A stretch of DNA of 64,000 bases from Candidatus Poribacteria bacterium (GCA_965232535.1 CBDDPW010000022.1:512519-576518), one strand, 5' to 3'; shown: positions 2,951-33,223, numbered from the stretch's first letter. Notes: generated by a model from the letters alone, not told the origin. Translations and numbers: made by a program.

Positions 2951-2958
2951 AGATAGTA

Positions 2959-3722: not shown

Positions 3723-3889
3723 AAAGGATTGTCTGAATCGCGGATTAAGAGGATTACGCAGATTACGCGGATTAAAACCAGAGCACATTTTTGCGTCGGC
3801 GGTGTATTATGTTGGTGGGAAGGGAGAGTGGTAGAAGAGCTTGTCTGAATCGCGGATTAAACAGATTAGGCAGATTACGCGGATTAAAT
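3672..3889. repeat. tandem duplication (2 x ~106-112 bp) spanning the 3' end of the methyltransferase gene
   Basis: 3672-3777 and 3784-3889 are ~85% identical (..ttttggcgtcggcggtgtatt..gtctgaatcgcggattaa..gattacgcggattaaa). Each copy carries internal GATTA(C/G)GC sub-repeats. Copy 1 contains the MTase stop codon. Confidence 0.75.
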
Positions 3890-4061
3890 ACGTGCTTTGC
3901 TCGGTGCACGGGAATAGTCCGTGGTATCCTCCGAACCGTGCAAATCCGCGATTTGGGTTTTTATACAAACACTCATGAGTTGGGTTTCACGAAGTTCAAC
4001 CCAACCTACGGACCGAGAAAGAGGGTATCTAACCTTAACCAAAACATACGGAGAATAAGAC

Positions 4062-5569
4062 ATGAACGGGCAAAAAAAGAAAATCGAAGATGCGCTGCAC
4101 CAATTCGCCGACGGTGACCTCGCCGACAACGCGAAACACCTTCTCAATGTCCTCGGCACGAAAGCGGACGAACCATGCGTCTTAGACCGAACGCCGCCGA
4201 GAGATTTCTTGAAGTTTTCAATCAAGATCCAGAGCGTCGCATGAACCCGGATAGGGCTCTGACGAAAAAATGGAAATCTATTGACCTTCTGTTTCAGTTG
4301 ACGGAGGAGGAAATCAGTAACAATCCCAATCTTGAGATTGACTTCGGAGGCGGCGGCATTGACAAGACGCGCATGGAATCCTACCTCTTTTTCGCCATCA
4401 AGCTAAGCGGTGGCCATTACACGCGGACACAACTGTCCCAGATTACGCGCGAAATCAACAAACCGTTCGACATGCCGGCAATGATTCTCTTTCAACACGG
4501 TGAGGCGCTCACCTTTGCTGTGATTGACCGCCGTCTCAACAAGCGCGACGAATCCAAAGATGTCCTCCTGAAGGCAACGCTCATCAAAGACATCAACGCC
4601 GCCGATCCCCACCCCGCCCACATTCTAATACTGTTCGACCTCTCAATTGCCAAGCTGCACGAGAAATACAGGTTCAGAAACTTTGAGCAACTTCATGAGG
4701 CATGGAAGAAGACGCTGGACACATCGGAACTCAACAAACGATTTTACGAAGAAATTGCTAACTGGTATTTCTGGGCTGTCAATGAGGTGACGTTCCCGGA
4801 CGGTGCCGAGAAGAACAAGGAAATTCGCAACGCGACCAGCGTTATACGGCTAATAACACGCCTGATTTTCGTCTGGTTCATCAAGGAAAAGGGGTTGGTA
4901 CCCGATGCTCTATTCAATGAAACGAAGATTCAAGAGCTTCTTGTCAACACCGACCTACGGGAGTGCACCTACTACAAGGCAATTCTTCAGAACCTGTTCT
5001 TCGCCACGCTGAATCAGGAAATGAACACGAAGAAAATGAACACGCCAACAAAATCCGATAACCGCAAATTCAGAAATCGGGCTAAGCACTCCAATGGACG
5101 TGATCAAAACTACATGGTGCATTCCTTGTATCGGTATGAGAAATTCTTCAGCGACAAGGATGAAGCTCTCGCTTTGTTTGACAAAATACCTTTTCTTAAC
5201 GGTGGTCTTTTCGAGTGTCTTGACAAATTTCTAGAAAACGAACACGAAAACGGAGGTACGAAGGAAATCCGGATTGACGGCTTTTCCGACAATAAAAAGA
5301 ACAAATTGGACGTGCCCAATCTTCTGTTTTTCTCTGACAAGAAAATCATTGACCTCAACGCTGCCTACGGCACAAGGAACAAGCAATATGAGGTACGCGG
5401 GCTAATTCACATTCTTGACAGTTACAAGTTCACCGTCACCGAAAACACTCCGATAGAGGAGGAAGTGGCGCTTGACCCGGAACTATTGGGAAGAGTGTTT
5501 GAAAACCTTCTCGCCGCTTACAATCCAGAAACCGGTGCGACTGCCCGCAAGTTGACCGGCTCCTATTAA
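4062..5569 (+). pseudogene. N-terminal fragment of a type IIG restriction-modification enzyme / BREX PglX-like protein, disrupted by a frameshift at ~4118-4244 and truncated by a MITE insertion at 5569
   Basis: The 464-aa ORF 4175-5569 has MmeI/PglX-like N-terminal-half motifs (LIFVWFIKEKGL, IPFLNGGLFE, LDPELLGRVFENLL). It ends ...ARKLTGSY* exactly at the MITE boundary. The YYTPREIV motif X continues on the other side of the MITE. ORF 4062-4244 overlaps in another frame (both frames open across 4118-4244). This suggests a frameshift, or alternatively a separate tiny ORF. Confidence 0.7.
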
Positions 5570-5738
5570 CCAATGGTGCTAGTATATGTAGTATTTAAAT
5601 CATAAATGACATACTATATACTGACACGATGATGTGCGATTATGCGCGGTTGACAAATGTTGCGCCTACCTGATCTGCTAACAACCTAGATATAGTATGT
5701 CATTGAAAATCATGTACCAATTAACTAGCACCAAAGGT
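5569..5738 (+). mobile_element. MITE-like ~170-bp element, copy 2, inserted inside the type IIG RM gene
   Basis: Identical to copy 3 except for 1-2 nt. Flanked by a TATTA direct repeat (5564-5568 and 5739-5743). Removing the element plus one TATTA restores the in-frame sequence GSYYTPREIV. The element supplies an in-frame ATG (5697) and a TTGACA box. Confidence 0.85.
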
Positions 5739-8084: not shown

Positions 8085-8455
8085 GTAACTGGTATACTGA
8101 TGCGTGAAGAAGGGCAAATCAGATAAAGATGGCGTCACCTTCCATAATCCGTAATTTAGTCAATGGCTAAAAAGACAGGGCACGAGATTGTCTTACGAAA
8201 AGCGATAGCGATACAACGCTAAGGGGATGGAAATAAATAACCTTTCAATATACGCCAAACCGTGCTATGCCCTGCGCTATTAAACCCCCAAAACTGGTGA
8301 AATGTTATTCTTTTCCAGCCCCTAACTGTAGAATTTGCTTGAACAATCTTATCGAGCGCCTCACGTAGTGCGATAGTCAATTGTGATAACGCAGGGAAAA
8401 TCATAGGCACTTGGCAATCGTGTGGTGATACGGCACCGATTGTGGAGGTATCAGT

Positions 8456-11098
8456 ATGAATGAAAGAGAATATGCAGGGGCTAAGTGGTGGAAATTTGAT
8501 TTTCATACTCACACACCTGCCTCGGAAGACTTCAGTCAAAGCGGAGTTTCACCTGAATCTTGGTTGAAAGCATTCATGGATGAGGGAATTGATTGTGTCG
8601 CGATTACCGACCATAACAGCGGCGGCTGGATAGACCACTTGAAGAATAAGTTGCAGGAATTGGCCAGCAGCCAGTCCGATTGGTACCGACCCCTGTATCT
8701 GTTTCCGGGGGTGGAAATCTCAGCAAATGGCAACGTGCATATTTTAGCGATATTTGGACATGAGAAGCATAAGAGCGATATCGATCAGTTGCTTGGTGCG
8801 GTTAGTTATTCGGGGACAAAGGGCAAAAGCGATGCAGTAACGAACACGACCGTTACCGAGGTCGTCAATGCAGTTGCGGAACAGGGAGGTATCCCTATTC
8901 CGGCGCATGCCGACACTGCCAATGGGTTGTTTAAACTGCAAGGACTAACATTGGACAATGCGATGGATAATCCCAACCTCTACGCGATGGAGTTATGCGA
9001 CACCGATTACCAAAAGCCCCAACTGTATACTGACATGAAGGTGCGGTGGACTGAAGTCCGAGGCTCCGATACGCATAACTTCAGCGACAGTGCATTTGGT
9101 ACGTTTACCTGGATTAAAATGGATAAACCTTCCATTAACGGATTGAAGCTAGCGCTGATTGATGGAACCGTCTCCGTTAATCGCAAAATGCACGCTGACC
9201 CCAACCGGCACGCGCCGCACTATCTAGAGGAACTCAAAATATGCAAAGCAAAACACATTGGCCGTACAGAGCCCCTCAATTGCAGATTTAGCCCCTTTCT
9301 TAACGCTATAATTGGTGGACGCGGAAGCGGTAAGTCCACATTGGTGGAATTCATGCGCCTAAGCCTGCAGCGCGTTGCGGAACTTCCGGAGTCACTAGAA
9401 AAAGGAACCCGTCAGTATTTTGATGTGAAGGAGGTTAACAGCTTACTGATTGAGAACAGCACGATTTCGCTAATCTATCGCAAAGGTGAGGTGCGGTACC
9501 GGTTGAAATGGTCAGCCGAAGCGGGTAGCACCTCTTTGGAGGAGGAAAAAGATGGCATTTGGAAACCTAGCCCCGGAGAAATACATTCGCTATTTCCTGT
9601 ACGAATTTATAGCCAGAGGCAAATCCTTGAACTAGCAAATGATACAGGCGCGCTGATTCAAGTTATTGATGAAGCGCCCGAAGTTGACTCTTGGACGTTT
9701 AAGACACAACACACGGATTTGGTCAACCAGTACAAACAGATTGAAGGTGAACAAAGAGAACTGAAGCATAAAATTTCCCACGAAAATCGGCTACAAGGAG
9801 AGTCAAACGACCTCGCACGGCAGATTGAGCAAATAGAAAAATCTGGGCACGAGGCTGTACTGCGAAATTTTAGTAAACGGCAGAGGCAGTTAAGCGAGAT
9901 TGACAGCTTGGAAGGAAAATGGAAAGAGATGAGTTGTCGTCTTGCTGACACGCTGCATGACATTACCCCGGCGCATTTCGATAAGCAGCATTTTGCCGAC
10001 GATACCGATATTCTTTCGGTTTTACAAAAAACAAACGAAAAATGGCAAACGATTCAAGACCAATTAGACCAATTGGTACAAGACGCTCAATTATCTATTC
10101 ACAACTGGAATACTGAAAAGAGTGCTGCAGACTGGATGCGACGCCTCAAGACAGATATGAAAAAGTACGAGTCTTTGTCCTCGGAAATGAAACAGCATAA
10201 TATTGATCCACAGCAGTACCCTTGGCTATTGACGAAACAGAAAAGTATACAGACGGAATTGAATCTCATTGCCGATTATCGTTCGCAGTGGCAAGAATTG
10301 GAACATGCGAAGAAACAAGTGTACAACCAGATAAATACAAACAGAACGAAGCTCTCGCAAAAAAGGAAAGAATTTCTAACGCGTGTTCTACGCGATAACT
10401 CTTCGGTCAGCATTGAAGTCAATCCGTTTGGCGAAGATTGGGGCGGCGAACACGGTATAGAAGAAGAGATCCGTAGAATATTACAATGCCAAGATGGCTT
10501 CGAAAAAGATATTGATGCCCTGAAAGAGGTTTATCTACGGGACGGTGGTGGAAAGGTTGAAGAACTCAAAACGGCAGTTAAAGATATTCGCGATGAAAAG
10601 CTGGCTGCCAAAGATAACCGCTTTACCCGACGTTTGCAGAACTTACCTCAAGAATCAATGATTGATTTCATCTTGTGGTTTCCCGAGGATGATTTGAAAG
10701 TTACCTTTGGCCCCAGAAATCAGCACATAGAACAGAGTTCTCCGGGACAGAAAACCGCCGCGTTGTTAGCATTTATCCTTTCCTACGGAGATGAGCCACT
10801 GTTGCTCGATCAACCTGAAGATGATTTGGATAACGAATTAATCTACAAGTTGGTTGTCAAACAGTTGCGAGGAATGAAAAGCAAAAGGCAGATTATCATC
10901 GTTACGCACAACGCCAACATAGTAGTCAACGGCGATGCGGAGATGGTTCTACCGCTTCAGGTCGGCGGTGGTGAAACCCACGTAAGGCGGGCTGCGAGCA
11001 TTCAGGAAAAAGATGTCCGGGAATCCATATGCGAAATTCTGGAAGGGGGGCGACACGCATTTGAAGAGCGCTATAAACGTATTCATTTGGGAACTTAA
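8456..11098 (+). CDS. PHP-domain phosphoesterase fused to Rad50/SbcC/SMC-like ABC ATPase (880 aa; Ppl-like defence protein)
   Basis: The N-terminus (WWKFDFHTHTPASEDF...VAITDHN...PAHADT) is a PHP metal-dependent phosphoesterase fold. A Walker A follows (IIGGRGSGKSTLVEFM). Then comes a ~400-aa coiled-coil-like insertion. The C-terminus has an ABC signature-like SSPGQKTAALLAFIL, a Walker B/D-loop LLLDQPEDDLD and an H-loop IIIVTHNAN. RBS GGAGGT lies upstream. Confidence 0.8.
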   Translation: MNEREYAGAKWWKFDFHTHTPASEDFSQSGVSPESWLKAFMDEGIDCVAITDHNSGGWIDHLKNKLQELASSQSDWYRPLYLFPGVEISANGNVHILAIFGHEKHKSDIDQLLGAVSYSGTKGKSDAVTNTTVTEVVNAVAEQGGIPIPAHADTANGLFKLQGLTLDNAMDNPNLYAMELCDTDYQKPQLYTDMKVRWTEVRGSDTHNFSDSAFGTFTWIKMDKPSINGLKLALIDGTVSVNRKMHADPNRHAPHYLEELKICKAKHIGRTEPLNCRFSPFLNAIIGGRGSGKSTLVEFMRLSLQRVAELPESLEKGTRQYFDVKEVNSLLIENSTISLIYRKGEVRYRLKWSAEAGSTSLEEEKDGIWKPSPGEIHSLFPVRIYSQRQILELANDTGALIQVIDEAPEVDSWTFKTQHTDLVNQYKQIEGEQRELKHKISHENRLQGESNDLARQIEQIEKSGHEAVLRNFSKRQRQLSEIDSLEGKWKEMSCRLADTLHDITPAHFDKQHFADDTDILSVLQKTNEKWQTIQDQLDQLVQDAQLSIHNWNTEKSAADWMRRLKTDMKKYESLSSEMKQHNIDPQQYPWLLTKQKSIQTELNLIADYRSQWQELEHAKKQVYNQINTNRTKLSQKRKEFLTRVLRDNSSVSIEVNPFGEDWGGEHGIEEEIRRILQCQDGFEKDIDALKEVYLRDGGGKVEELKTAVKDIRDEKLAAKDNRFTRRLQNLPQESMIDFILWFPEDDLKVTFGPRNQHIEQSSPGQKTAALLAFILSYGDEPLLLDQPEDDLDNELIYKLVVKQLRGMKSKRQIIIVTHNANIVVNGDAEMVLPLQVGGGETHVRRAASIQEKDVRESICEILEGGRHAFEERYKRIHLGT

Positions 11099-11100
11099 CC

Positions 11101-12321
11101 ATGTTTGACAGCCTGACTGAACTCCGTGAGAAAATATTCCTGGGTGAGGACTCAATGATTGAGTTCAAGAGAGAGTTGCCCGAACGAAAAGAACTCTCCG
11201 ATGAGATGGCGGCTTTCGCTAACGACCGTGGCGGGGTGATACTCATCGGTGTTGAAGATAACGGCGGCATCGTCGGGATTGATCGCGAGAGCTTGGAAAG
11301 GGTTGAGAAAACGGTGGTTGAAATATGCCAAGACAGCATCGATCCGCCGGTTCACATTGTGACGGAGAAGTTGTGCATTGACGAGAAGAACCTGATAAAA
11401 ATTGATGTGTCTCGCACCCCGTTTGTGCATCGATCAGCCAACGGTTATTTCATCCGTCAGGGCAGCACCAAGAGAGAGATGACCACCGAGCAGTTAGGGC
11501 GATTGTTACAAAATCGTTCGCAAGTGCATCGTATGGCTTTTGATGAACAGTTCGTGCCGAACACTCACAGAGACACATTGAGCAGATCGCTTTATCAGCG
11601 GTTTATAACCCCTGGCGTGGCTGAAGGCGAAGAGGAGAACCTGCTCCTTAAGCGGCGTTTGCTTGTCAAGGAAGGCGAGAATTACCGAGCATCCGTCGCC
11701 GGGGTGTTGATGTGTCATCACAAACCCGATGATTACCTCTATAATAGTTTCATTCAGGCGGTCTATTACAATGGCGTGGAAAAGGATGCCAACTACCAGA
11801 TTGACGCCAAGGATTTCAAGGGACCGCTGGATGAACAAATTGTGGACGCCTTCAAATTCGTTGAAAAGCACAACCAAGTGTCCGCGCGAAAGGAGATTGG
11901 CAGAATCGAGCGGCCGCAGTACAGCATGAGAGCCGTTTTTGAGGCAGTCGTTAATGCCGTCGTACACAGAGATTACTCAAAAGCTGGCTCAAAAATTCGA
12001 CTGTTTATGTTTGCGGATCGGCTGGAGCTTTATTCGCCCGGTGCGTTGGGGTACACCTTGACTGTGGAAGATTTGCCCTATAACCAAGCGACCCGTAATG
12101 AGCTCCTTGCCCGGCTACTTTCGGAAACGACGCTTGAGGACCATCTGGCAACTAAGACAACCCGGCGCCACTTTTTGGAACGCCGCGGCGAGGGCGTCGG
12201 TATCATTCTGAACGAGAGCGAGAGACTGAGCGGTAAAACGCCGGTATACGAGGTGTTTGGCGAAGAATTACGCTTGACAATCTTCGCGGCGGAATCTTTG
12301 CAAGACGACATTGCTGTCTGA
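11101..12321 (+). CDS. AlbA_2 (Schlafen-like divergent AAA) + HATPase_c_4 domain protein (putative DNA-binding / RecG-C-terminal-like ATPase)
   Basis: Starts 2 nt after the upstream stop, so it is translationally coupled. The N-terminus (IEFKREL..AFANDRGGVILIGVEDNGGIVGI) is an AlbA_2 fold. The C-terminus (AVVNAVVHRDYS...IRLFMFADRLELYSPG) is the HATPase-like module typical of this family. Confidence 0.8.
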   Translation: MFDSLTELREKIFLGEDSMIEFKRELPERKELSDEMAAFANDRGGVILIGVEDNGGIVGIDRESLERVEKTVVEICQDSIDPPVHIVTEKLCIDEKNLIKIDVSRTPFVHRSANGYFIRQGSTKREMTTEQLGRLLQNRSQVHRMAFDEQFVPNTHRDTLSRSLYQRFITPGVAEGEEENLLLKRRLLVKEGENYRASVAGVLMCHHKPDDYLYNSFIQAVYYNGVEKDANYQIDAKDFKGPLDEQIVDAFKFVEKHNQVSARKEIGRIERPQYSMRAVFEAVVNAVVHRDYSKAGSKIRLFMFADRLELYSPGALGYTLTVEDLPYNQATRNELLARLLSETTLEDHLATKTTRRHFLERRGEGVGIILNESERLSGKTPVYEVFGEELRLTIFAAESLQDDIAV

Positions 12322-12351
12322 ACTGTGATTTTTGTGATGAAGTGATGGACT

Positions 12352-12738
12352 ATGATTAAAGAGGAGTATAAGTATTCGGCGTTGACGGAAAAAGTGATTG
12401 GCTGTGCCATGCGGGTACATTCTAAGTTAGGCAGTGGATTTCAGGAAGTAATCTATCAGAGGGCATTAGCGCTCGAAATGGCTGCTCAAAAAATTCATTT
12501 CAGTCGTGAGCATGAGATGCCTGTCTACTACAGAGAGCAACAAATTGGCACGCGAAGAGCCGATTTCTTGATAGAGGGCGTTGTCTCCGTCGAATTGAAG
12601 GCTATTATCCAACTGGATGACATCCACCTGGCGCAAGCAATCAACTATCTGGAGGCGTACAATCTGGAGGTTGGGTTGCTAATCAACTTTGGCGCACGAA
12701 GCCTTGAATTCAGAAGAGTTACGAACACAAAACTTTAA
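12352..12738 (+). CDS. GxxExxY family protein (small PD-(D/E)xK-like nuclease-fold protein)
   Basis: 128-aa ORF with KVIGCAMRVHSKLGSGFQEVIYQRAL...ADFLIEGVVSVELKAI, the hallmark GxxExxY motif region. Confidence 0.75.
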   Translation: MIKEEYKYSALTEKVIGCAMRVHSKLGSGFQEVIYQRALALEMAAQKIHFSREHEMPVYYREQQIGTRRADFLIEGVVSVELKAIIQLDDIHLAQAINYLEAYNLEVGLLINFGARSLEFRRVTNTKL

Positions 12739-12801
12739 TCAACAAAATCATGGCAATCACCATAATCTCATGAATCACAGTTCAGACAAAGGGAAAAAAC
12801 C

Positions 12802-15800
12802 ATGGCAGAAAACACCTCACTATTCCCTTCCGGTATTCGTGATAACCGCCATCGCGGCACGGTCGGCAGATTCCTGCAGGACTATATCAAAGACGGATCG
12901 TCACTCTCTATCGTCTCAGCCTACTTCACGATTTACGCCTTCGACGCCTTGAGATCGTCTTTGCTCGGAATCAATGACCTTCGCTTCCTCTTCGGCGAAC
13001 CGCGATTCATCAACCGGTTAGATCCCGAAAGAACGGAAAAGAAATCATTCATCATAGACAGCGGCGGCTTGCAGTTGACGAACCAGCTTGAACTCAAGCG
13101 GGTGGCAAGGGAATGCGCCGCGTGGATTGAAGACAAGGTCGAGATTCGCTCAATCCAAAAGGAAAACCTGCTGCACGGCAAGATGTACCACATCGACGAT
13201 ACCAACCGGGAACACGCGATTCTCGGTAGTTCCAACTTCACCGTGCGCGGCTTGGGATTGGGCGAAAGTGAAGGCAACATCGAACTCAATTTGAAGGTTG
13301 AGGACAACCGGGATGTTACCGACCTGAAACAATGGTTTAACGAACTGTGGTATGACGAGAAACAGGTCGTGGATGTTAAGGATGAAGTGTTGTCCTACCT
13401 TAATCAACTCTATGAGAATTACGCGCCGGAGTTCGTCTACTACAAGACGCTTTATCATCTCTTTGAGCGGTACTTGAGCGATCAGGAGGGGTGGGGCCTG
13501 CTGGACACACCGCCGCAACTCGTCGACACGCAAATCTGGAACGCGCTCTACGGTTTCCAGAAGGACGGCGTAAAAGGGGCAATCAACAAAATCCTGACGC
13601 ACAACGGCTGTATTATCGCAGACAGCGTCGGCTTGGGAAAGACATACGAAGCCCTTGCGGTGATAAAATACTTTGAACTGCGCAACGAAAACGTGCTGGT
13701 GCTATGTCCCAAGAAACTACGAGAGAACTGGACCATCTACCCTGCATATACGGGCAACACACTCAATCCCTTCCCAAATGACCGCTTCGGCTATACCGTT
13801 CTCTCGCATACTGACCTGAGCCGGGCGGACGGCATGTCGGGGGATGTGGATCTGTCGTCGTTCAATTGGGGTAATTACGGTCTGGTGGTTATTGACGAGT
13901 CGCACAATTTCCGAAACAACACCCCCGGAAAAAAAGATCGGGACGGCAACCTGATACGCTTGAGCCGCTACAAACGGCTGATGGATGACATTGTCAAGAG
14001 CGGCGTAAACACCAAGATGCTGTTGCTGTCCGCGACGCCGGTCAACAACGATCTACGCGATCTGCGCAACCAACTTTACTTTCTTACAGAGGAACGCGAC
14101 GACGCTTTCAAGGATTCACTCGGCGTCGCCAATCTGAGAGAAACCATCTCAAGCGCCCAAACCGCCTTCAACAAGTGGGCAAAGCAGGAGGGGACGCGCA
14201 GCAGCCAGAATCTGCTGGAAGAACTGAGTACCCACTTCTTCAGACTGCTTGACGGTTTGACCATCGCGCGGTCGCGGAAGCAAATTCAAAAATACTACCC
14301 CGACTCGATGAGAGAATTGGGCGGCTTCCCGAAACGCGGCAAGCCCGAATCCATCTATACCAAAATAGATCTCAAGGATGAGTTCCTGTCTTACGACGCG
14401 CTGAACGATGAGATTTCCGAGTATCAACTGTCGCTCTACAATCCGACCAAATATCTCCGACCCGAACACGAGTCCGAATACAACTTGGAGTTGGTAAAAA
14501 ACTTTACGCAGATTGACCGTGAGCACTTCCTGATTGGCATGATGAAGGTAAACTTCCTCAAACGCTTGGAGAGCTCCGTCCACTCCTTCAAGATTACGCT
14601 GGAGCGTACGCTTGATAAGATTGAAAAGTTGGAGGAACGTATCCGGCGGTTTCAGGAGTTCCGCGACGAAAACCCCGACCTCGATCCGGCGGAGATGGAG
14701 ATTGACGCCGGTGATGACGAAGACCTGCAAGCGGCTTTGGAGGTGGGGAAGAGCCTGAAATTCAAGACGGCGCACCTTGACGTGGAGCGGTGGTTGGAGG
14801 ATTTGCGGCAGGACAGAGAACAGCTTGAGCGCCCCCTCCGCTCCGCGGAAAAAGTCAACCCGGCCCGTGACGCAAAGCTCACCAGACTGAAGCAGTTGAT
14901 TCGAGAGAAAGTTAAGAATCCTTCAACCACCAAGCGTGGAACTCTAAATCGAAAGGTATTGGTATTCACCGCCTTTGCGGATATCGCCGACTACCTCTAC
15001 GGGGAGTTGCATGAATGGGCGCAGACGGAATTGGGCATCCGTACCGGGATGGTGACGGGGGGCACCATGCCCAACAGAACCACCCTGGGCAAAACCAACT
15101 TTGTCGACATCCTTACCAATTTCTCGCCAATTGCGAAGAACCGGAGCAGCGATAGGGAAATGCTTCAGGACGAGGAAATAGACCTACTCATCGGCACGGA
15201 TTGTATCTCGGAAGGCCAGAACCTGCAAGACTGCGACTACCTGATCAACTACGACATCCACTGGAATCCGGTGCGCATCATTCAGCGCTTCGGACGGATT
15301 GACCGTATTGGAAGCGTCAACAACCGAGTTCATTTAGTGAACTTCTGGCCCACCCCCGACCTGAATCGTTACATCAACCTGAAAAATCGGGTTGAAGCGC
15401 GGATGGCGCTGGTGGATGTCACGGCTGCGCAGGGAGATAACCTGCTTGACCCCGACGCGCTCTCCGAAGCCATTGAAGGGGACCTCAAATACCGCGACCA
15501 ACAACTCCTGAAACTTCAAGAGGAAATCCTTGACCTTGAAGAGTTTGACGAAAACGTCTCCCTCAACGAGTTCACGCTTGACGATTTCCGTATGGAACTC
15601 ATCAGGTACATCGAAAGCAACAAAAAGAAACTTGAGGAGGCGCCTTTCGGGCTTTACGCCGTTGTGCCTCCGCCCGCGGGAGATCCGATAATTAAACCCG
15701 GTGTTATCTTTTGCCTCAAACAGAAATCGAAGTCGGAGGAGAACGAAAAGTTGAATCCGACCCATCCCTACTTCCTGGTCTACGTTCGAGAGGAAGGCGT

Positions 15801-16206
15801 CGTGCGGTTTACGTTTGCCCAGCCGAAGCAAATCCTTGAGATGTACCGTCAATTGTGTGAGACGAAGACCAGTCCGTATGACGAACTCTGTGCGTTGTTC
15901 GATGAACACACGGAAAACGGCGCCGACATGTTGGGTTACGACAAACTACTCCGGGAAGCCGTTAAATCCATTTCGCATACCTACGAGAAGCGCGCTTTCA
16001 CCAATCTTCGATCCGGTCGCGGCGGGGTATTGCCGCTCGAATCCGAGCAGGTTGGCGACACGACGGATTTTGAGTTAGTGACGTGGTTGGTGATTAAGGA
16101 CGAATCGTCTCCCATGAAGCTGAATGAGCTTCTGGATCAAGTGACAGAGTACAATATTCATGGCGAAGTTGACACCGGTTCTCCGGTGGGGCGTGAAGAA
16201 TGGTAA
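12802..16206 (+). CDS. PLD-family nuclease / SNF2-family helicase fusion with MazE-like antitoxin C-terminal tail (1134 aa)
   Basis: N-terminal HKD motif (HGKMYHIDD...GSSNFT). SNF2 motifs: I GLGKTYEAL, II VIDESHNFRN, III LLSATPVNN, V/VI QRFGRIDRIGS. The last ~45 aa (PMKLNELLDQVTEYNIHGEVDTGSPVGREEW) closely resemble the C-terminal half of MazE/PemI antitoxins (..[28 protein letters not shown]). Confidence 0.85.
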   Translation: MAENTSLFPSGIRDNRHRGTVGRFLQDYIKDGSSLSIVSAYFTIYAFDALRSSLLGINDLRFLFGEPRFINRLDPERTEKKSFIIDSGGLQLTNQLELKRVARECAAWIEDKVEIRSIQKENLLHGKMYHIDDTNREHAILGSSNFTVRGLGLGESEGNIELNLKVEDNRDVTDLKQWFNELWYDEKQVVDVKDEVLSYLNQLYENYAPEFVYYKTLYHLFERYLSDQEGWGLLDTPPQLVDTQIWNALYGFQKDGVKGAINKILTHNGCIIADSVGLGKTYEALAVIKYFELRNENVLVLCPKKLRENWTIYPAYTGNTLNPFPNDRFGYTVLSHTDLSRADGMSGDVDLSSFNWGNYGLVVIDESHNFRNNTPGKKDRDGNLIRLSRYKRLMDDIVKSGVNTKMLLLSATPVNNDLRDLRNQLYFLTEERDDAFKDSLGVANLRETISSAQTAFNKWAKQEGTRSSQNLLEELSTHFFRLLDGLTIARSRKQIQKYYPDSMRELGGFPKRGKPESIYTKIDLKDEFLSYDALNDEISEYQLSLYNPTKYLRPEHESEYNLELVKNFTQIDREHFLIGMMKVNFLKRLESSVHSFKITLERTLDKIEKLEERIRRFQEFRDENPDLDPAEMEIDAGDDEDLQAALEVGKSLKFKTAHLDVERWLEDLRQDREQLERPLRSAEKVNPARDAKLTRLKQLIREKVKNPSTTKRGTLNRKVLVFTAFADIADYLYGELHEWAQTELGIRTGMVTGGTMPNRTTLGKTNFVDILTNFSPIAKNRSSDREMLQDEEIDLLIGTDCISEGQNLQDCDYLINYDIHWNPVRIIQRFGRIDRIGSVNNRVHLVNFWPTPDLNRYINLKNRVEARMALVDVTAAQGDNLLDPDALSEAIEGDLKYRDQQLLKLQEEILDLEEFDENVSLNEFTLDDFRMELIRYIESNKKKLEEAPFGLYAVVPPPAGDPIIKPGVIFCLKQKSKSEENEKLNPTHPYFLVYVREEGVVRFTFAQPKQILEMYRQLCETKTSPYDELCALFDEHTENGADMLGYDKLLREAVKSISHTYEKRAFTNLRSGRGGVLPLESEQVGDTTDFELVTWLVIKDESSPMKLNELLDQVTEYNIHGEVDTGSPVGREEW

Positions 16207-16553
16207 GACCAACCAACTACGTTCCACGACGCGGTGATGCGGTGTGGGTTGACTTCAATCCTCAAGCCGGGCACGAGCAAGCGGGACGGCGTCCTGCCGT
16301 TGTACTATCACCAGAGTCTTATAACAGCACCGTAGGTCTGGCAATTCTGTGCCCAATTACCAGTAGAGTGAAGGGGTATCCTTTTGAGGTTACAATCCCA
16401 GCCGGGCTAGATGTAAATGGGGTTATTCTTGCGGACCAACTCAAGAGCGCGGATTGGCGTGTGAGAAATGCGGAGTTGATATGTTCTTTGCCCATGACCA
16501 CAGTTGACACAGTTTTGCAGAGAGTCCAAACGCTCTTAGGAAGAGATGGTTAA
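16200..16553 (+). CDS. mazF: MazF/PemK-family type II toxin endoribonuclease
   Basis: Has VPRRGDAVWVDFNPQAGHEQAGRRPAVVLSP...LCPITS, the MazF/Kid signature. The ATG overlaps the helicase stop (ATGGTAA), the classic antitoxin-toxin overlap geometry. Confidence 0.85.
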   Translation: MVRPTNYVPRRGDAVWVDFNPQAGHEQAGRRPAVVLSPESYNSTVGLAILCPITSRVKGYPFEVTIPAGLDVNGVILADQLKSADWRVRNAELICSLPMTTVDTVLQRVQTLLGRDG

Positions 16554-16689
16554 CTATTTGGCTCAAGTAACAAATCAAGGTGTTTTCAAGGTCGTTGGGT
16601 GCGCCGACAGAACGTGCTGTGGTAGCATCTCATCATTCCTTTCGGGATGATTCATTCAGCAAGCACCACTCGTTTTTCAATCCTCGGTT

Positions 16690-17557
16690 AGCTTTGAAAA
16701 AGCGTTCCTTAATAGCGCGCCATTATCCCTGTCGGAATAATTCTTTCAGCAAGTAACTACCTCACATTTCCATGTAGGAGGGGCATCTTGCCCCGACGGT
16801 TTGTCTATAGCGCACATTATCCTTGGCGGAATAATTCTTTCAGCAAGTAACACTCATCTTCGGATCTATGACAGGCTTTGGGGAGGTGTTCCTTCGTAAA
16901 ATGCTTTTCACTCCAGAGGATCAAGCGACTGAATAGGGAGCGCGATAGTAAATCCTATGCAATGTCAATAGAATCGCGGTGTCTCCCAATCTCCGCGCTC
17001 CAGCGGAGCGCAATGTGTCTAGCGCATCATCAAGTGTCACTCATATTTCGTTCTATGGCTAGCTCTGAAAAAGTGTTACTTGGTAGCGCCCCATTATCCC
17101 TGTCAGGATAATTCATTCAGCAAGTAACACTCATTTTTCGCTCTATGACAGGTTTTGAAAAAGCGTTCCTTCGTAGAATGGTTTCACTCCAGAGGAGTGA
17201 GATGTCAATAGAACACGATTCCCCATCGCGTCTGCACTCCAGAGGAGTGCAATGTGGAGTGTTACTTGAGAGCGTGCCATTATCCCTGTCGCGATAATTC
17301 TTTCAGCAAGCAACACTCTTGTACCGCAAACTGTCAGTTTGTGATCACAATTCATCAGCGGTACACGTTCATTTTTCGCTCTATGGCTGGCTTTCCGAGA
17401 GTGTTACTTGATAGCGCGCCATTATCCCTGTCGGAATAATTCTTTCAGCAAGCAACACTCTTGTACCGCAAACTGTTAGTTTGCGATCGCAATCCATCAG
17501 CGGTACACGTTCATTTTTCGCTCTATGACTGGCTTTCCGAGAGTGTTACTTGATAGG
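16690..17557. repeat. array of nested palindromic REP/MITE-like units (family A: GTGTTACTTG-N-CCATTATCCCTGTCGGAATAAT-N-CAAGTAACAC), including two tandem ~142-bp composite units (17269-17556)
   Basis: Full family-A units occur at 17073-17130, 17269-17316 and 17401-17458. Degenerate copies lie at 16718-16776 and 16806-16853, and a truncated copy at 17540-17556. The units are interleaved with other palindromes (CACTCCAGAGGAGTG, CAAACTGTCAGTTTG, GCGCTCCAGCGGAGCGC). The spacers are not unique. Confidence 0.8.
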
Positions 17558-18547
17558 TCATAATTGGGTTAGCGAATCCGCTCCGCTTAGGAATCCTTCA
17601 ATCCACGGGCGTACCCGCTCGCGCATACCTCCAAGATCGTGGAGATGCAGCCACAGCGTCATGCCCCGGAGGTAGGCGAGCCTGAGATGTGCGGGGAGAG
17701 CGCTTCGTTCCTCTTCTGTTAAAGGACAAACCGCCTCGTAAGCTTCAAGGAAAATAGACTTTTGCTGGGGCGTTAAAGGAGTGTCTTGGTAAACGGAGGG
17801 GAAGAAGACCAAGGCGTACGCGAGATCGTAGGCACGGTTGGCGGGTCGTGCGGAGTCGAAATCCAAAATAGCTTTCACTTTTCCCTCGGCATCGAATTTC
17901 AAATTTTGTGCGCGATAGTCGCCGTGGATAATCCAGTCTCCGTCGTCCGACTCGGAGATTTCCGCCGCCAATCTTTCCACTTCCCCCATCCATTCATCAA
18001 TCCGATTCCGCGATACGGGATACCCGTCAGCTTCCGACGCGGCGATACGTATCCGTTCAAGCCGCAGGCGCAGCAGATTGATAACCTCCTCGTGCATAGG
18101 TAGCCACTTGAAGCCGACCGTTGGTTGAAAGCCCTGCAATTTTCTGTGAATGCGTCCCAGGGTTTCGCCCGCGGAATGCAGCGCTCCAATCGGTTGTGCA
18201 ACGTCGTAACCCTGTCCTTCCACGAATTCAAAAATCGCGTAGATGTCGCTTCCTTCAACCGATAGCGTGTCGCCGTCACGATTTCGGAGGAGGCGAGGGA
18301 TAGAGAACTCCGGTTTCCCAAGATATTCCTGTACCGCATGGGTGAAGGCGATGCGGGGGATGTGCATTGACGGGCTGAGGTCAAGGTCGGATGCAGGTTT
18401 ATAGCGTTTTAGAAACAGTTTTCCCTGATCGGTATTGAGCGCCATTGTGGAACTCATGGCGCCTGTACCTATCGGGACAGCGGTGGTAACCTCTAGTCCG
18501 TAGTGTTGGTGGATATTTTCCTCTTGCTGAGGCGAAAGCGATTCCAT
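17558..18547 (-). CDS. phosphotransferase-family (APH/choline-kinase fold) protein kinase-like enzyme
   Basis: 329-aa ORF with the catalytic HGDYRAQNLKFD (HGDxxxxN) and a downstream DFDSA (DxD) motif of aminoglycoside/homoserine-kinase-type phosphotransferases. Confidence 0.8.
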   Translation of the reverse strand: MESLSPQQEENIHQHYGLEVTTAVPIGTGAMSSTMALNTDQGKLFLKRYKPASDLDLSPSMHIPRIAFTHAVQEYLGKPEFSIPRLLRNRDGDTLSVEGSDIYAIFEFVEGQGYDVAQPIGALHSAGETLGRIHRKLQGFQPTVGFKWLPMHEEVINLLRLRLERIRIAASEADGYPVSRNRIDEWMGEVERLAAEISESDDGDWIIHGDYRAQNLKFDAEGKVKAILDFDSARPANRAYDLAYALVFFPSVYQDTPLTPQQKSIFLEAYEAVCPLTEEERSALPAHLRLAYLRGMTLWLHLHDLGGMRERVRPWIEGFLSGADSLTQL

Positions 18548-18700: not shown

Positions 18701-18743
18701 TACGCATCTGATTTTGCATTGACAACTTTACACGTGTATAGTA

Positions 18744-18913
18744 ACCAATGGTGCTAGTATATGTAGTATTTAAATCATAAATGACATACTATATACTGAC
18801 ACGATGATGTGCGATTATGCGCGGTTGACAAATGTTGCGCCTACCTGACCTGCTAACAACCTAGATATAGTATGTCATTGAAAATCATGTACCAATTAAC
18901 TAGCACCAAAGGT
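18744..18913 (+). mobile_element. MITE-like ~170-bp element, copy 3
   Basis: Full-length copy flanked by a TAGTA direct repeat (18739-18743 and 18914-18918). Same TIRs as copies 1 and 2. Confidence 0.85.
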
Positions 18914-19117
18914 TAGTATGATAAGGAACGGACTAATAAGTTGCGGAGTGGATGCGCTACTCTTCAAATTGCCGATTTCCCGTGTTCGAACGGGGCGGCG
19001 CTTCGGCTTCGCGCGTACTTAAAAACCTGTTTGAAATGCCGTTTCGAGTAAAATCATGCGTGTCGAAACCGAGTTTTTTCTTCAAAACTTGGTTTCTTTC
19101 TCGCACAATTCTGTAGG

Positions 19118-19245
19118 ATCAACCGACTGAATAGGGAGGGCGATAGAGATCCTTCAACCGACTGAATAGGGAGGGATCAAGTGAGTGAATAGCGAACGCG
19201 ATAGAGATCCTTCAACCGACTGAATAGGGAGGGCGATAGAACTCC
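19118..19245. repeat. tandem ~35-bp repeats (TCAACCGACTGAATAGGGAGGGCGATAGAGATCCT), 3.5 units with one nested variant unit
   Basis: Head-to-tail units with no spacers. Related single units lie at 16919-16952, 19770-19838 and 27440-27476, and in reverse orientation at 33181-33198 and 58911-58975. Confidence 0.7.
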
Positions 19246-19699
19246 CCTGCGCACCTGACAAATCGTGCGTTTCAAACAGGCTTTAAGAGTGACCTTTATG
19301 GCGACGAACTTTTTTTCTGTTAACATCTTGTTCACATTTGCTTACCTATGGACCCACGCTATCAAAGGAAAGTACTGAATCAAACCATGTGAACACCCTC
19401 TTGAAATCATGCCTCCGTTCACATTTTTGTACCTATATTTTGGGGAATTTTACAAGAGAAATAGGTACAAGTTCAGCCGAAAACGTCCGAAATGGGTAGT
19501 AGATCGGCATTTTGTTCACATTTTCGAGTTCTTGAGCGACAGAACAAGGGGCAATCAAAGGACCGTGAACATCTACTGATTTTATACACCTTCCACTCCG
19601 ATGATGTTGTAGTGTGAAGGGCCCATGAAGCCGCAAACAGCCGCCATGGTTAGTTTGAACGCGAGGCCGATGAAGTGATTTCAGATGCTTTTTCCTATA

Positions 19700-20165
19700 G
19701 AGCATGCCATTATCCCTATTGGAATACTTCTTTCAGCAAGTAACTGCCTCACATTTCCATGTAGGAGGGAATCAAGCGAACGGATAGTGAGTAATCAAGT
19801 GAATGGATAACGAACGCGATAGAGCTCCCATAAAGATCTTCTTGCCCCGACGGTTTGTCTATAGCGCACATTATCCTTGGCGGAATGATTCCCTCATCAA
19901 GCGACACTCAACTCTCGCTCTGTGACTGGTTCCGAAAGAGTGTTACTTGGTAGCGTACCATTGTCCCTGTCGGAATAATTCTTTCCACAAGTAACATTCA
20001 CGGGTAAAGGTTCTTAGCCCCAGCGGGGCGGCAGGTGTATAGAAAACCGGAATCCCATAGAAACCTAGCCCCAGAGGGGCGACACGTGTATAGAAATCGA
20101 GAGTGTTACTTGAGAGCGTGCCATTATCCCTGTCGGGATAATTCTTTCAGCAAGTAACACATATG
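19700..20165. repeat. second cluster of family-A palindromic units, with a segmental duplicate of 16718-16860 and 42-bp tandem hairpin repeats
   Basis: 19706-19905 duplicates 16718-16860 with a ~70-bp insertion inside the GGGGCATCTTGCCCC hairpin. Family-A units lie at 19938-19997 and 20103-20160. Tandem TAGCCCCAG(C/A)GGGGCG..TGTATAGAAA units lie at 20015-20100. Confidence 0.7.
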
Positions 20166-20229
20166 CTACAATAATGAGGTTTGGTTTAGGCATTGCAAAG
20201 ACGGAAATTTTCTTGGTGTTTGTAAACCC

Positions 20230-20418: not shown

Positions 20419-21825
20419 ATGAAAAGACGGCGTAAAACCGGCATTTCGAGAAAAGGACGATTCAAAGAACGTCCTCCTACCCAAGAGATTCAAGACGTGA
20501 ACGCTCTTGAACAAATAAATTATAACGCGGCAGGTCTCGACATCGGAGACGCTGAAATTTATGCCGCTGTCCCTGAAGGACGAGATAAAGACTGTGTGCG
20601 AGTCTTTAAGACTTTTACCGAAGACCTCCATCTCTTAGTGGATTGGTTACAGCATTGTTGCGTGACCACGGTGGCGATGGAATCAACAGGTATCTACTGG
20701 CTTCCAATCTATGAAATGCTTGAAGCACGCGGCTTTGAAGTGTATCTGGTGAATGCGCGTCATATTAAAAACGTTAGCGGTAAGAAGACTGACATCGAAG
20801 ATTGTCAATGGATACAGCAGTTGCATACCTATGGGCTGCTTTCGACTTCATTCCGCCCGGCTGAAGAGATTTGTGCCTCGCGCTCATTGGTGAGACATCG
20901 AGCCAATCTAATCGCTATGTGCTCGACACAAGTGCAGCATATGCAGAAGGCATTGCAACTGATGAATCTTAAGCTGACCAACGTCATCTCAGACATTACC
21001 GGTTTGACAGGCATGCGTATCATCAGAGACATCGTCAAGGGTGAACGCGATGCCCACCAATTGGCAGCCCATCGTGATGAGCGATGTACCAAAAGTGAAA
21101 AAGAGATTCGCAAATCTCTTGAGGGCAATTACAAGTCCGAACATGTGTTCGCCCTCAAGCAAGCGTTGCAAGCCTACGATTTTTATCAGCAGCAAATCAG
21201 CGATTGTGATGTAGAAATCGAAAAGTTTTATCAGAGGATTGAACCCCAGATTGACATCAAAGCGCACCCATTGCCGGAGAGTCAAAGAAAGCGGCGGCGT
21301 CCAAAGGGGAATGAGCCCTGTTTTAATTTGCGTCAACATCTGTATCAACTGAGCGGGGTAGATCTCACTCAGATTGAGGGAGTCAATGTGCTCAATGCAC
21401 AAGCGATATTGAGTGAAATCGGCATCGATATGAGCAAATGGCCTTCAGTCAAACATTTCACCTCCTGGCTGGGTTTATGTCCGAACAACCAAATCACGGG
21501 TGGCAAAGTGATGCAGCGTCAAACGCAGAAAAACAACAATCGTGCGGCACGCGCTCTGAGGCTGGCGGCGCAAGGCGTGTCAAATAGCAAAGGCGCCCTC
21601 GGCGGTTATTATCGTCGTCAGCGAGCGAGGCTCGGTCCTGCTCAAGCCATCACGGCAATCGCTCATAAACTCGCACGTATTATCTATGCCATGTTGAGAA
21701 ATCGGACGCCCTACCGTGAACCTCCTTCCGGCTACTATGAAGAACAGGCTCGCCAAAGGGCGGTTAAAAACCTGAAACGCAAAGCCAATCAGTTGGGATT
21801 TCATTTGGTTGCACAAGCAGCTTAA
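20419..21825 (+). CDS. IS110-family transposase/recombinase (DEDD N-terminal domain + Transposase_20 C-terminal domain)
   Basis: LDIGDAEIYAAV..., MESTGIYWLPIYEMLEARGFEVYLVNARHIKN and a C-terminal ...WLGLCPNNQITGGK... are IS110-family hallmarks. The N-terminal 30 aa of the 468-aa ORF are probably 5' UTR, so the true start is likely internal. Confidence 0.9.
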   Translation: MKRRRKTGISRKGRFKERPPTQEIQDVNALEQINYNAAGLDIGDAEIYAAVPEGRDKDCVRVFKTFTEDLHLLVDWLQHCCVTTVAMESTGIYWLPIYEMLEARGFEVYLVNARHIKNVSGKKTDIEDCQWIQQLHTYGLLSTSFRPAEEICASRSLVRHRANLIAMCSTQVQHMQKALQLMNLKLTNVISDITGLTGMRIIRDIVKGERDAHQLAAHRDERCTKSEKEIRKSLEGNYKSEHVFALKQALQAYDFYQQQISDCDVEIEKFYQRIEPQIDIKAHPLPESQRKRRRPKGNEPCFNLRQHLYQLSGVDLTQIEGVNVLNAQAILSEIGIDMSKWPSVKHFTSWLGLCPNNQITGGKVMQRQTQKNNNRAARALRLAAQGVSNSKGALGGYYRRQRARLGPAQAITAIAHKLARIIYAMLRNRTPYREPPSGYYEEQARQRAVKNLKRKANQLGFHLVAQAA

Positions 21826-22014
21826 ATCGGTTTTCCCATCTACGAAATTGAGGTGAAATCGAATTGTCGAAAACGCCTTCCAACACGCTTATTTTGTTAG
21901 TGTTACTTGGTAGGTTATCTATATCTGTTGATTCACGCACGTCCTTTGATGTATGATGAGGAAAACGATCAATTTGGCGATGCTCATTTTTTTGTGAACG
22001 TTAAATTTACGTAG

Positions 22015-26236: not shown

Positions 26237-26599
26237 TCGACTTTGTACAAAAGTATAACGATTGGATTAGACGGGAAGCCATATAACACCAAACCTGTAG
26301 GCGGGGCATCTTGCCCCGCTGTGATGATACTGAAAACGGCTACCGACTTTTTCACAGGTCAACCGAAAAGACCAGATGGTTAAAATCTCTCCCGCTTTTC
26401 TCCAACGCTTTATTACCACCATCTGTTATACGGCTTGAATGTACAGAGTCGAGCTTAGTTGTTAAGTTCCGCATTATTTACGCACGTAAAAAAGGCGTTG
26501 AAAAGCTGAGCCCCCTTTGGCGCCGAATAGTGACTGCCTAGCCGCCCAACCCAACCTACGGTGCTAAAGTCATCGGACGGCACGGAGCCCGACTCTTAA

Positions 26600-26920: not shown

Positions 26921-27379
26921 ATGTCATCTTTGCTGAAATCCTCAATGGTCGAACTTCTTTCGCCTGTGCTCGATCGAGAGGGAATTGAGTTTGTCGATGT
27001 CGAATTTCAGGGTGAAGGCAATGCAAGGACGATACGATTTCTGATCTACAAACCCGGCGGTATCACTGTAAGGGATTGCCAACAGGTAAGCCGGATGGTT
27101 CACCCAATCCTTGAAGTTCACGGGTTGATAGATAGCGGAGTATCTCTCGAAGTTGCTTCACCGGGAATCGACCGACCGCTTGCCACCGAGGCAGATTTTC
27201 GCAGGAATGTTGGCCGGGCGGTTGAGATAGAGGCAACCTCTTCAACAGGCGAATCACTAAGATTGAACGGAATCATAACGGATGTCAAGGACGGAATGGT
27301 TTCCCTTGATGAATCCGGAAAATTAACCGAACTTCAAATTACAACTATCATAAGAGCTCAAATCCAACTGATGTGGTAA
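26921..27379 (+). CDS. rimP: ribosome maturation factor RimP
   Basis: 152 aa, ...LEVASPGIDRPL...F.R..GR.VEI.., immediately upstream of nusA. Confidence 0.85.
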   Translation: MSSLLKSSMVELLSPVLDREGIEFVDVEFQGEGNARTIRFLIYKPGGITVRDCQQVSRMVHPILEVHGLIDSGVSLEVASPGIDRPLATEADFRRNVGRAVEIEATSSTGESLRLNGIITDVKDGMVSLDESGKLTELQITTIIRAQIQLMW

Positions 27380-27575
27380 TACCATTTCTCTTGAATAACA
27401 GTGCGTATCATGTCTGAATCATATCGTTCACTTTCTACGTAGGCGGGGATCAAGTGACTGAATAAGGAACGCGATAGAGATCCCATCTTGCCCCGCCTTG
27501 AAAGAACTTGATTGACGCTATTAATGCACTGCGAATGTAGAGAAATGGTATAACATCTTGGGTAGTGGAGAGTAC

Positions 27576-33020: not shown

Positions 33021-33223
33021 TTCGGCAATGCCTTCGGTGTTAAAGCGGGTTTGAATATAGTTGCATAGTAATGCGTGCACATTTGAGTTGTTATCACTTG
33101 TGAGATTTCGGTAGCATTCGTAATTAGACGCTCCTATTGCACTTGTTTGGGAAGATTTTTAAGGCATATCTATTGCGCCCGCTATTCACTCGCTTGATCG
33201 CAACGAGCATACTCTGAAAAACT

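Follow-up and report, generated by a model that had tools for sequence, protein, structure and literature searches.

The 64,000-nucleotide stretch analyzed here (the window; Candidatus Poribacteria bacterium, GCA_965232535.1, CBDDPW010000022.1, positions 512519 to 576518) has the gene content of a bacterial chromosome, with ligA, the series rimP-nusA-infB-rbfA-truB-ribF-pnp, glycine cleavage genes, trkAH, and the nuo operon, together with IS110-family and IS4/5-family transposases. Scattered in it are copies of a short modular sequence, most often 35 nt long, that sits inside other hairpin-forming repeats and carries a small hairpin of its own. One of its hosts, a GTAG-tagged repetitive extragenic palindrome (REP) that we designate Ha, is found in the window both empty and filled. 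We give a probability of roughly one-half to the reading that the inserts are very small noncoding, nonautonomous insertion modules that have spread within one clade of Candidatus Poribacteria.

Ha reads GTAGG(A/C)GGGGCATCTTGCCCCG, laid out as GTAGG(A/C)GGGG-CATCTTG-CCCCG, and as single-stranded DNA forms a stem of 8 bp (−10.9 kcal/mol, z = −4.8). Its 15-mer GGGGCATCTTGCCCC occurs exactly at 16780-16794 and 26303-26317 (chance expectation, 0.13), in both cases with GTAGG(A/C) directly before it and G directly after, and a variant with one mismatch lies on the minus strand at 54395-54409. A degenerate 21-mer spanning both empty and filled junctions is present three times in the window, against 0.00 expected. 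The two exact copies belong to empty, plus-strand hairpins: GTAGGAGGGGCATCTTGCCCCG at 16774-16795 (whole feature, GTAGGAGGGG-CATCTTG-CCCCGA, 16774-16796), identified by sequence match and DNA fold as a GTAG-tagged REP, and GTAGGCGGGGCATCTTGCCCCGC at 26297-26319, identified by sequence match. The original prediction had a hairpin at each of these sites, as found, but placed the second about 7 nt off, at 26290-26312.

The filled copies are also on the plus strand. The cleaner one occupies the center of a MITE-like repeat (MITEs being miniature inverted-repeat transposable elements) within the rimP-nusA spacer (27376-27556; terminal inverted repeats GTAATACCATTTC...GAAATGGTAT). From 27439 the sequence runs GTAGGCGGGG, then the insert ATCAAGTGACTGAATAAGGAACGCGATAGAGATCC, then CATCTTGCCCCGC; the insert (27449-27483), one unit of modules A and B as defined below, measures exactly 35 nt between GGGG (27445-27448) and the CATC that begins CATCTTGCCCCGC (27484-27496), and zero target bases are duplicated or lost. 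The second filled copy (19761-19849) consists of a left half, GTAGGAGGGA, an insert of about 69 to 70 nt with the architecture A A B C (19771-19839), and a right half, TCTTGCCCCG. From 19761 it reads GTAGGAGGG(A), module A at 19771-19792, a further A at 19794-19815, B at 19816-19828, and CATAAAGATCT, a degenerate module C, at 19829-19839, followed by TCTTGCCCCG; the final G of the left arm has become A, and the host CA is absent on the right side. The claim that a single hairpin exists empty and filled, with 70 and 35 bp lodged between GGGG and CATCTTG, was thereby borne out.

The inserted unit and its hairpin

Species-representative genomes were scanned with the degenerate 21-mer RTAGRVRKSSCATCTTGCCCC, which matches the empty hairpin and the filled right junction alike. 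The scan returned at least 117 stretches, nearly all of which, among the matches listed, came from metagenome-assembled genomes (MAGs) of Candidatus Poribacteria, which are sponge symbionts. The sampled loci referred to below, about 1 Mb of Poribacteria DNA from the matches listed, were selected for the Ha hairpin, so that counts per host family are biased.

Across these loci the insert resolves into three modules. Module A (22 nt) has the form ATCAA NN GA NN G R ATA NN GA NN, in which an invariant TCAA stands directly 5′ of an imperfect hairpin, NN-GA-NN-[GRATA]-NN-GA-NN, with G-R-A-T-A as the loop. Module B is GCGATAGAGATCC (13 nt, with 14-nt variants), and the optional module C is CATAGAGATCC (11 nt). 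The commonest architecture is AB (35 nt); AAB, AABC, ABB, ABAB, longer arrays, and nested inverted units also occur. The ends of the unit are conserved (ATCAA...GATCC), and GGATC and GATCC are complementary to each other.

The module A hairpin, which was absent from the original prediction, is revealed by covariation. A total of 163 copies (124 distinct) were gathered by the 12 fixed positions only, and the eight variable positions were therefore not chosen for pairing. These eight positions form four base pairs: 89.5% of the cells are paired, compared with 61.6% after shuffling, double-sided changes amount to 193 cells versus 36, and the covariation score is 0.874 versus 0.32, falling to 0.19 or less when the partner column is slid by one to three positions. 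Every pair is represented by three to four Watson-Crick types at high frequency (for the outermost, CG 28, GC 27, AU 26, and GU 26). Between the pair sets lies an invariant 5′-GA-3′/5′-GA-3′ tandem mismatch, mostly in a Y-GA-R context. The excess of G·T over A·C pairs (71 versus 21), together with the purine tandem, whose complement would present mismatched pyrimidines, assigns the structure to the strand that reads ATCAA; by this sequence evidence, only that strand of module A is predicted to fold. The covariation was not attributed to snap-back synthesis, since the GA/GA mismatch is conserved and not complemented.

A mutual-information scan over the whole unit yielded no covarying pair beyond the module A hairpin and no second paired region. 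In an RNAfold prediction for the 37-nt unit, the module A hairpin is enclosed by GGATC/GATCC, with an energy that by itself is not significant. Pairing of module B with the 5′ ATC has no more than a hint in its favor (ACC with GGT, one to three cases). In a variant subfamily found in L018, L055, L079, L101, and L106, ATCAA is replaced by AGCAA or ACCAA, and GCGATAG by GCGGTAG; it is lodged within ACTAGCC-type heptamer arrays, for example on the minus strand of L018 (3449-3500 and 4546-4600). The paired change of ACC with GGT in this subfamily hints at a possible extra contact from the 5′ end to module B. Searches with Rfam 15 gave zero matches at the gathering threshold over the whole window, and only noise at E values up to 10 for 19050-19900; origin from a known RNA or a tRNA was rejected, there being no hits to either.

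Insertion sites and orientation

The point of insertion is most directly seen in a nine-copy alignment of a MITE-like repeat of about 145 nt from several genomes, in which seven copies are empty and two, those of the window and of locus L017, are filled at the same nucleotide. The module A sequences of the two fillings (AAGTGACTGAATAAGGAAC versus AAATGAGCGAATAGCGAAT) show compensatory differences, indicating that the insertions were independent events. The spacers in L110, L017, and L106 had been considered as orthologs of the rimP-nusA spacer, which tblastn rejected; they are paralogous copies of larger repeats. The original prediction of a mobile element thus holds to the extent that the unit acts as an insertion into a preexisting hairpin, as seen from these empty and filled copies and from 18 genomes with empty hairpins only.

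Targeting of one specific stem-loop, as had been suggested, did not hold up. The units occupy at least six host families (insertion points marked ^) as well as the heptamer arrays. In the sampled loci, Ha (GTAGGNGGGG^CATCTTGCCCC) was empty 127 times and filled 6 times, Hb (GTAGGGTGGG^CACTGCCCACC) 22 and 4 times, Hc (GTAGGGTGCG^CACTGCGCACC) 6 and 3 times, and Hd (TGTAGG^AG^CGATCTCCAGGTCGCGA, with two insertion points) 8 and 5 times; He1 (CACTCCAGAGG^AGTG) and He2 (GCCCCAGNGGGG^CGACAGGTG) were each seen in both states. For the heptamer arrays with the variant subfamily, no clean empty/filled pair was established. In Ha, Hb, and Hc the unit enters where the 5′ arm ends, in Hd beside the tag, and in He1 and He2 within the 3′ arm. 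All that the families have in common is a G run directly adjoining the unit on its 5′ side: at array boundaries, G occupies position −1 in 77 of 94 cases (82%), and C or T occupies position +1 in 87 of 95.

Alignment of the junctions, the check proposed with the original prediction, gave a divided answer, with an exact left junction and conserved ends (ATCAA...GATCC) but a right junction that varies by 1 to 4 nt. The right side reads CATC, TATC, CC, AC, or CCC in Ha, and CACT becomes CCCT in Hb and Hc; this ragged end often leaves the unit enclosed by a GGGATC...GATCCC stem. A duplicated target, either ATC or GATC, was rejected because the empty sites lack the required bases.

In GTAG-tagged hosts, the unit lies on the strand of the tag in 36 instances and on the opposite strand in none, a polarity that is not trivial, since the ends of the unit are almost palindromic. 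Units are almost always intergenic, with only 11 of 98 in stop-free stretches, which make up 80% of the DNA. With respect to the neighboring genes, 29 are in sense and 16 in antisense orientation, while 16 lie in divergent and 13 in convergent gaps; this lack of a strict gene orientation argues against a role purely at the transcript level. An identical module A variant can recur in different host contexts and genomes, and the two A modules of nested inverted units differ in sequence. A separate observation is an array of five near-identical 34-nt A+B units, head to tail, in L036 (5797-5967), indicating that arrays can also grow through plain tandem duplication.

Host REPs and the search for an enzyme

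The GTAG tag stands directly 5′ of the hairpin foot in all Ha copies, i.e., the 127 empty ones of the sampled loci and those of the window. Ha is present at one to two copies per 8-kb locus in many genomes (the loci, from at least 117 stretches, having been selected for it). On a metagenome contig, L202 (region 2950-3960), a gene that matches Pfam Y1_Tnp and NCBIfam NF047646 (REP-associated tyrosine transposase [RAYT]; E = 1e-34) is flanked by copies of GTAGGCGGGGC-loop-GCCCCGCC, including the exact Ha 23-mer and loop variants. Within the Poribacteria, tblastn identified in L018 (5565-6140) a 191-aa protein matching NF047646 at E = 5e-52, with an Hc REP upstream and Hb-type REPs, not Ha, downstream. 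The element-bearing clade has, therefore, at least one RAYT. That RAYT genes are flanked by such REPs suggests that the hosts are genuine GTAG-tagged REPs of the RAYT type.

Some further observations concern the same genes. In L018, a 90%-identical duplicate of the last ~72 codons of the RAYT gene lies at 6340-6555 (region 5450-6560). In L202, the 23-nt REP is part of a REPtron around the RAYT gene. The identical 23-nt REP GTAGGCGGGGCATCTTGCCCCGC is shared across the metagenome contigs L120 to L212, whose G+C contents of ~0.45 to 0.71 mark them as very different lineages. Such unexpected identity across lineages suggests that the RAYT-REP system may have spread horizontally.

The original prediction had likened the inserts to IS200/IS605-type hairpin targeting. 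The likeness extends to the host, a GTAG-tagged REP of the type that serves as a substrate for RAYT Y1 transposases, but not to a transposase, none being linked in the window. The same check extended to a reverse transcriptase, and again none linked to the unit was found in the window. Neither the window nor the ~1 Mb of sampled loci yielded an IS200/IS605 TnpA when searched with a RAYT motif regular expression and an IS200 consensus, of which the former missed the L018 gene (NPVKHGY) and the latter matched nothing else. No autonomous parent element was seen between pairs of A modules in the copy-rich loci.

Distribution among Poribacteria and beyond

Among the matches listed, ten Poribacteria genomes including the window contained 98 copies with the perfect skeleton in ~500 kb, or about 0.2 per kb, which would correspond roughly to the order of a thousand units per genome. 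A further 18 Poribacteria genomes, again ~500 kb among the matches listed, had 0 units, and all 18 carry empty Ha; Hb and Hc REPs were seen only in the element-bearing genomes. Complete chromosomes with the element include OZ244829, OZ240209, OZ246960, OZ242326, and OZ242354, and among those lacking it are OZ242036, OZ220744, OZ242335, and OZ252032. The A+B pattern was absent from IMG/VR and from JGI metagenome contigs, and a phage origin was rejected on its absence from IMG/VR. The Ha hairpin pattern, for its part, was present in 93 metagenome stretches with G+C contents from 0.38 to 0.71, in whose 623 kb there was no convincing unit. With the empty hairpin being older and wider and the unit limited to a clade, the direction of the event is insertion, from an ancestral empty state into which the unit came later as an invader confined to one clade.

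Orthologous comparison was of little help at the level of single units. Exact-match searches with RimP, MazF, and the DHH-family protein yielded only two short Logan contigs, of ~97% DNA identity to the window, and RimP of the window is otherwise recorded nowhere but in these. Between species-level genomes of 82 to 92% identity, the coding sequences align while the intergenic regions are remodeled past alignment, and no clean single-unit indel emerged. One comparison did capture a larger insertion: a 144-nt MITE-like sequence with two Ha hairpins between inverted repeats AGGACTTACGCA...TGCGTAAGTCCT is present in L102 (2835-2980) and precisely absent at the orthologous site (6386) in L056, another species genome. 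This precise presence and absence indicates that composites of host hairpins are themselves mobile.

Other features of the window

For the skeleton of module A (TCAANNGANNGNATANNGA, one mismatch or less), the window has 11 occurrences where 0.39 would be expected. Both the tandem array (19118-19245) and the reverse-strand copies of the original prediction are there, the latter at 33163-33199 and 58865-58967. The array reads A B A A B A B and, on the plus strand, is preceded by a GTAGG tag and followed by CCTGCGCACC, the right arm of an Hc-type REP; the whole segment (19113-19255) is a REP filled with a multiunit array. Another plus-strand host, the He1 hairpin (CACTCCAGAGG^), has one A+B unit (16920-16955, with the B variant GCGATAGTAAATCC; whole feature, 16909-16955), and empty He1 copies follow at 17185 and 17235. 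On the minus strand, a solitary, slightly degenerate A+B unit, (G)ATCAAGCGAGTGAATAGCGGGC GCAATAGATATGCC, lies at 33163-33199 between a DHH-family gene and truB, antisense to both. A degenerate unit (ATACCGACCGATAAAGGAGG GCAATAGAGATAC) at 51846-51880 (minus strand) adjoins an Hb REP at 51896-51916, also on the minus strand, and a minus-strand array at 58865-58967, located between a leucine-rich-repeat (LRR) gene and nuoG and antisense to both, is composed of a truncated A, A, A, B, C, a 4-nt spacer, and a B-like module. Empty copies of families that are filled elsewhere include an Hc REP, GTAGGGTGCGCACTGCGCACC, at 2956-2976 (plus strand) and an Hb REP, GTAGGGTGGGCACTGCCCACC, at 59069-59089 (minus strand), of the kind that flanks the RAYT gene in L018.

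The LRR gene (54357-58835) encodes a 1,492-aa leucine-rich-repeat/Big_1/dockerin protein with 66-nt tandem repeats and is inserted between nuoF (52589-54061) and nuoG (59145-60815), interrupting the nuo operon; the same arrangement, with 2.7 kb extra, is found in locus L038. The protein is a eukaryote-like repeat protein, of a kind typical of sponge symbionts. Positions 1-16553 constitute a defense-type island encoding a double-stranded-RNA-binding domain protein, a methyltransferase, an Eco57I-like methylase with a TaqI_C domain, an SMC/AAA protein, a Schlafen AlbA_2 protein, a PD-(D/E)XK nuclease, a SNF2+PLD helicase (1,134 aa), and MazF. Around the genes of this island, three copies of a 176-nt repeat, 98 to 99% identical, are located at 2060-2235 (inverted), 5564-5739, and 18739-18914; they may be MITEs or IS ends, apparently recent. 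A palindromic repeat of ~55 nt (TTACTTGATAGCGCGCCATTATCCCTGTCGGAATAATTCTTTCAGCAAGTAAC; families D5, D6, and D16) forms arrays at 16630-17560, 19690-20190, and 21895-21913 that surround an IS110-family transposase gene (20419-21825), so that the IS110-family element appears to sit within a cluster of small palindromes. A similar placement among small palindromes has been reported for REP-targeting IS110 relatives. The window also has four HIP1 sites.

Discussion

If the inserts are insertion modules, the process may be pictured as follows. Units would be copied to new places, and always as one strand only. They would land immediately 3′ of a G run within another hairpin-forming repeat, whether a REP, a MITE-like repeat, a small palindrome, or another unit, without duplication of the target, and would afterwards multiply locally via tandem duplication. 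A Y1-type enzyme encoded elsewhere in the genome might move them in trans as single-stranded DNA. The Y1 transposases of IS200/IS605 and RAYT act on single-stranded DNA and integrate without target duplication; what they recognize is an imperfect hairpin, with mismatches that binding requires, together with a 4-nt guide or tag at its 5′ foot (PMC3479197). The layout of module A, with TCAA at the hairpin foot, fixed irregularities in an otherwise free stem, and the same orientation as the REP tag, matches these substrates; from it we infer a Y1-type mover. The anatomy, covariation, strand polarity, insertion rule, empty and filled paralogs, and clade restriction are observed here, and present-day mobility along with the identity of the enzyme is inferred. 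We regard a Y1-type enzyme specifically as a tentative candidate. Equally speculative is the broader proposal that module A could be the substrate of an unrecognized single-stranded DNA transposition system, consisting of a TCAA-tagged minihairpin, a recognition-critical tandem G·A, and a Y1/HUH enzyme restricted to the clade.

Several observations speak against this account. The window has no Y1 or reverse transcriptase gene, and in L018 the only RAYT gene found among the Poribacteria has REPs rather than units on its flanks, with no A modules adjacent. A single A+B unit has one hairpin and not two subterminal ones as in IS200/IS605. Escherichia coli TnpA-REP cuts at C^T, to which the G^A left junction bears no obvious match. 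In the only close relative found, represented by the two Logan contigs at 97% identity, the filled state is identical and the contigs break inside the unit; no strain polymorphism of any copy was seen in this comparison. Some arrays are plain tandem duplications (L036), and the variable right junction (1 to 4 nt) and the singly repeatable modules A, B, and C fit copying errors or recombination equally well.

This last point leads to the main rival, in which no dedicated enzyme is involved and the units pass from repeat to repeat through template switching during replication or through gene conversion. On stalling at a REP hairpin, a nascent strand would reanneal, via microhomology in the G and C runs, to another copy already filled with a unit, copy that unit, and switch back. 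Hairpin-forming repeats are established stalling sites, and such a course would explain the heterogeneous right junction, the nearly constant bracketing of units by a G run and C/T, the extra C's common in filled copies that give rise to GGGATC...GATCCC stems, the duplications of single modules, and the pure tandem array in L036. However, the near-palindromic GGATC/GATCC ends would permit both orientations by microhomology, whereas 36 versus 0 was observed; the left junction is exact, identical variants are found in unrelated host repeats, and a first copy in the clade would still be needed, given that related genomes with the same hairpins have zero. On balance we consider template switching or gene conversion rather unlikely as the full account. 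A different objection concerns the covariation, which could reflect purifying selection on each copy rather than selection for transposition competence if the unit were a host-selected structural motif, that is, a protein-binding DNA or RNA hairpin for transcript stability, termination, or nucleoid organization. The strength of the covariation, the invariant loop and tandem G·A, the intergenic location, and a sense orientation somewhat commoner than antisense (29 versus 16) are all in keeping with such a motif, and the GRATA loop would fit the GNR(N)A pentaloop pattern known from protein-binding RNAs. Yet copies also lie antisense and in divergent and convergent gaps with no strict gene orientation, copy number and arrangement vary freely (one to five units, nested inverted units), sister genomes manage without the element, and Rfam holds no match. 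Spread into other repeats would moreover be left unexplained, so that a structural role complements the insertion model and is compatible with either mode of spread; as an explanation in its own right we find it improbable. Chance similarity or assembly error can practically be dismissed. Short-read contigs do break at these repeats, but the window alone has 11 copies for 0.39 expected, and hundreds of copies are present in independent long- and short-read assemblies from several projects, which already refutes it; the same units recur in chromosomes assembled from long reads, in MAGs built with MEGAHIT and SPAdes, and in a Logan contig of independent origin (97% identical to the window, breaking inside the insert), and the window copies are therefore not an assembly artifact.

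Among known systems, the closest precedent for such insertion modules is that of the small dispersed repeats SDR1 to SDR8 (SDRs) of Nostoc punctiforme and relatives. SDRs, reported by Elhai et al. in 2008, are reportedly ~21 to 27 nt long and nested in other repeats; they reportedly cause no target duplications, have no identified transposase, and are confined to some lineages. SDRs, as so reported, and the Poribacteria unit are alike in being noncoding, tens of nucleotides in size, and nested in hairpins, heptamer arrays, and their own copies; the unit, with a module A of 22 nt and an A+B of 35 nt, lies inside members of six host families and inside further units, without duplication. The unit differs in its occurrence in Poribacteria, not Cyanobacteria, and in its A/B/C modules, covarying hairpin, invariant tandem G·A, TCAA tag, and G-run rule. 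Pneumococcal BOX elements (boxA-boxB(n)-boxC) and the bacterial interspersed mosaic elements (BIMEs) of enterobacteria are likewise modular and intergenic, with a variable number of internal modules, which measure 45 to 60 nt. BOX and BIME modules are not known to be nested inside other hairpins, unlike the unit, and we know of no comparable covarying minihairpin described for them.

With REPs, REPINs (inverted REP pairs forming one long hairpin), and RAYT the likeness lies in the structure of module A, which also joins a 4-nt tag to an imperfect hairpin, on a single strand. The unit departs from them in having TCAA instead of GTAG, a shorter stem (2+2 pairs around the G·A tandem), no inverted doublet (units are single or head to tail), a position inside REPs rather than beside genes, and no linked RAYT. 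Nor does the unit resemble a MITE in its ends, which are 5 bp (GGATC/GATCC) and without duplication where MITEs have terminal inverted repeats of 15 to 30 bp and a target-site duplication. IS200/IS605 elements and their noncoding derivatives (palindrome-associated transposable elements [PATEs]) share with it the lack of duplication and a layout of hairpin and guide tetranucleotide (PMC3479197), and strand-specific insertion 3′ of a short target may be a further likeness, but the unit is 10 to 50 times smaller, has one hairpin versus two, and targets a G run versus a defined tetra- or pentanucleotide. Within a single REP family, as in GTAG-3, GTAG-14, and GTAG-15, the loop may be short or may reach ~27 nt, with an inner region that is complementary to itself (Di Nocera et al. 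2013, PMC3733652). In contrast to these long loops, the same segment is found here in several unrelated REP families, in non-REP palindromes, and alone, making it an independent element and not a loop variant of one family. We found no description of such elements in Poribacteria in the literature, and class the unit as an SDR-like nested minielement that occurs in a new phylum and has a defined recognition structure of tag plus hairpin.

In practical terms, the units break short-read assemblies of sponge symbionts and reshape the DNA between genes, as in the rimP-nusA spacer and in the one that follows the LRR gene in the nuo operon. The unit looks like one of the smallest mobile DNAs known, and how tiny nested repeats spread has been a standing question since the cyanobacterial description of 2008. 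For this question the Poribacteria element offers a simple one-strand G-run rule and an invariant tag, loop, and G·A tandem, from which direct biochemical predictions follow. It also offers a natural contrast: some ten Poribacteria genomes, complete or nearly so, abound in the element, and eighteen relatives have the same hairpins empty and no copy of it. A comparison of gene content between the two sets could name the enzyme. Should a TCAA-tagged single-stranded DNA system indeed be at work, no mobile DNA with a defined recognition structure would be smaller than this one, at 22 to 35 nt, and the comparison of element-bearing with element-free genomes would reveal its enzyme and provide a route to how the cyanobacterial SDRs move.

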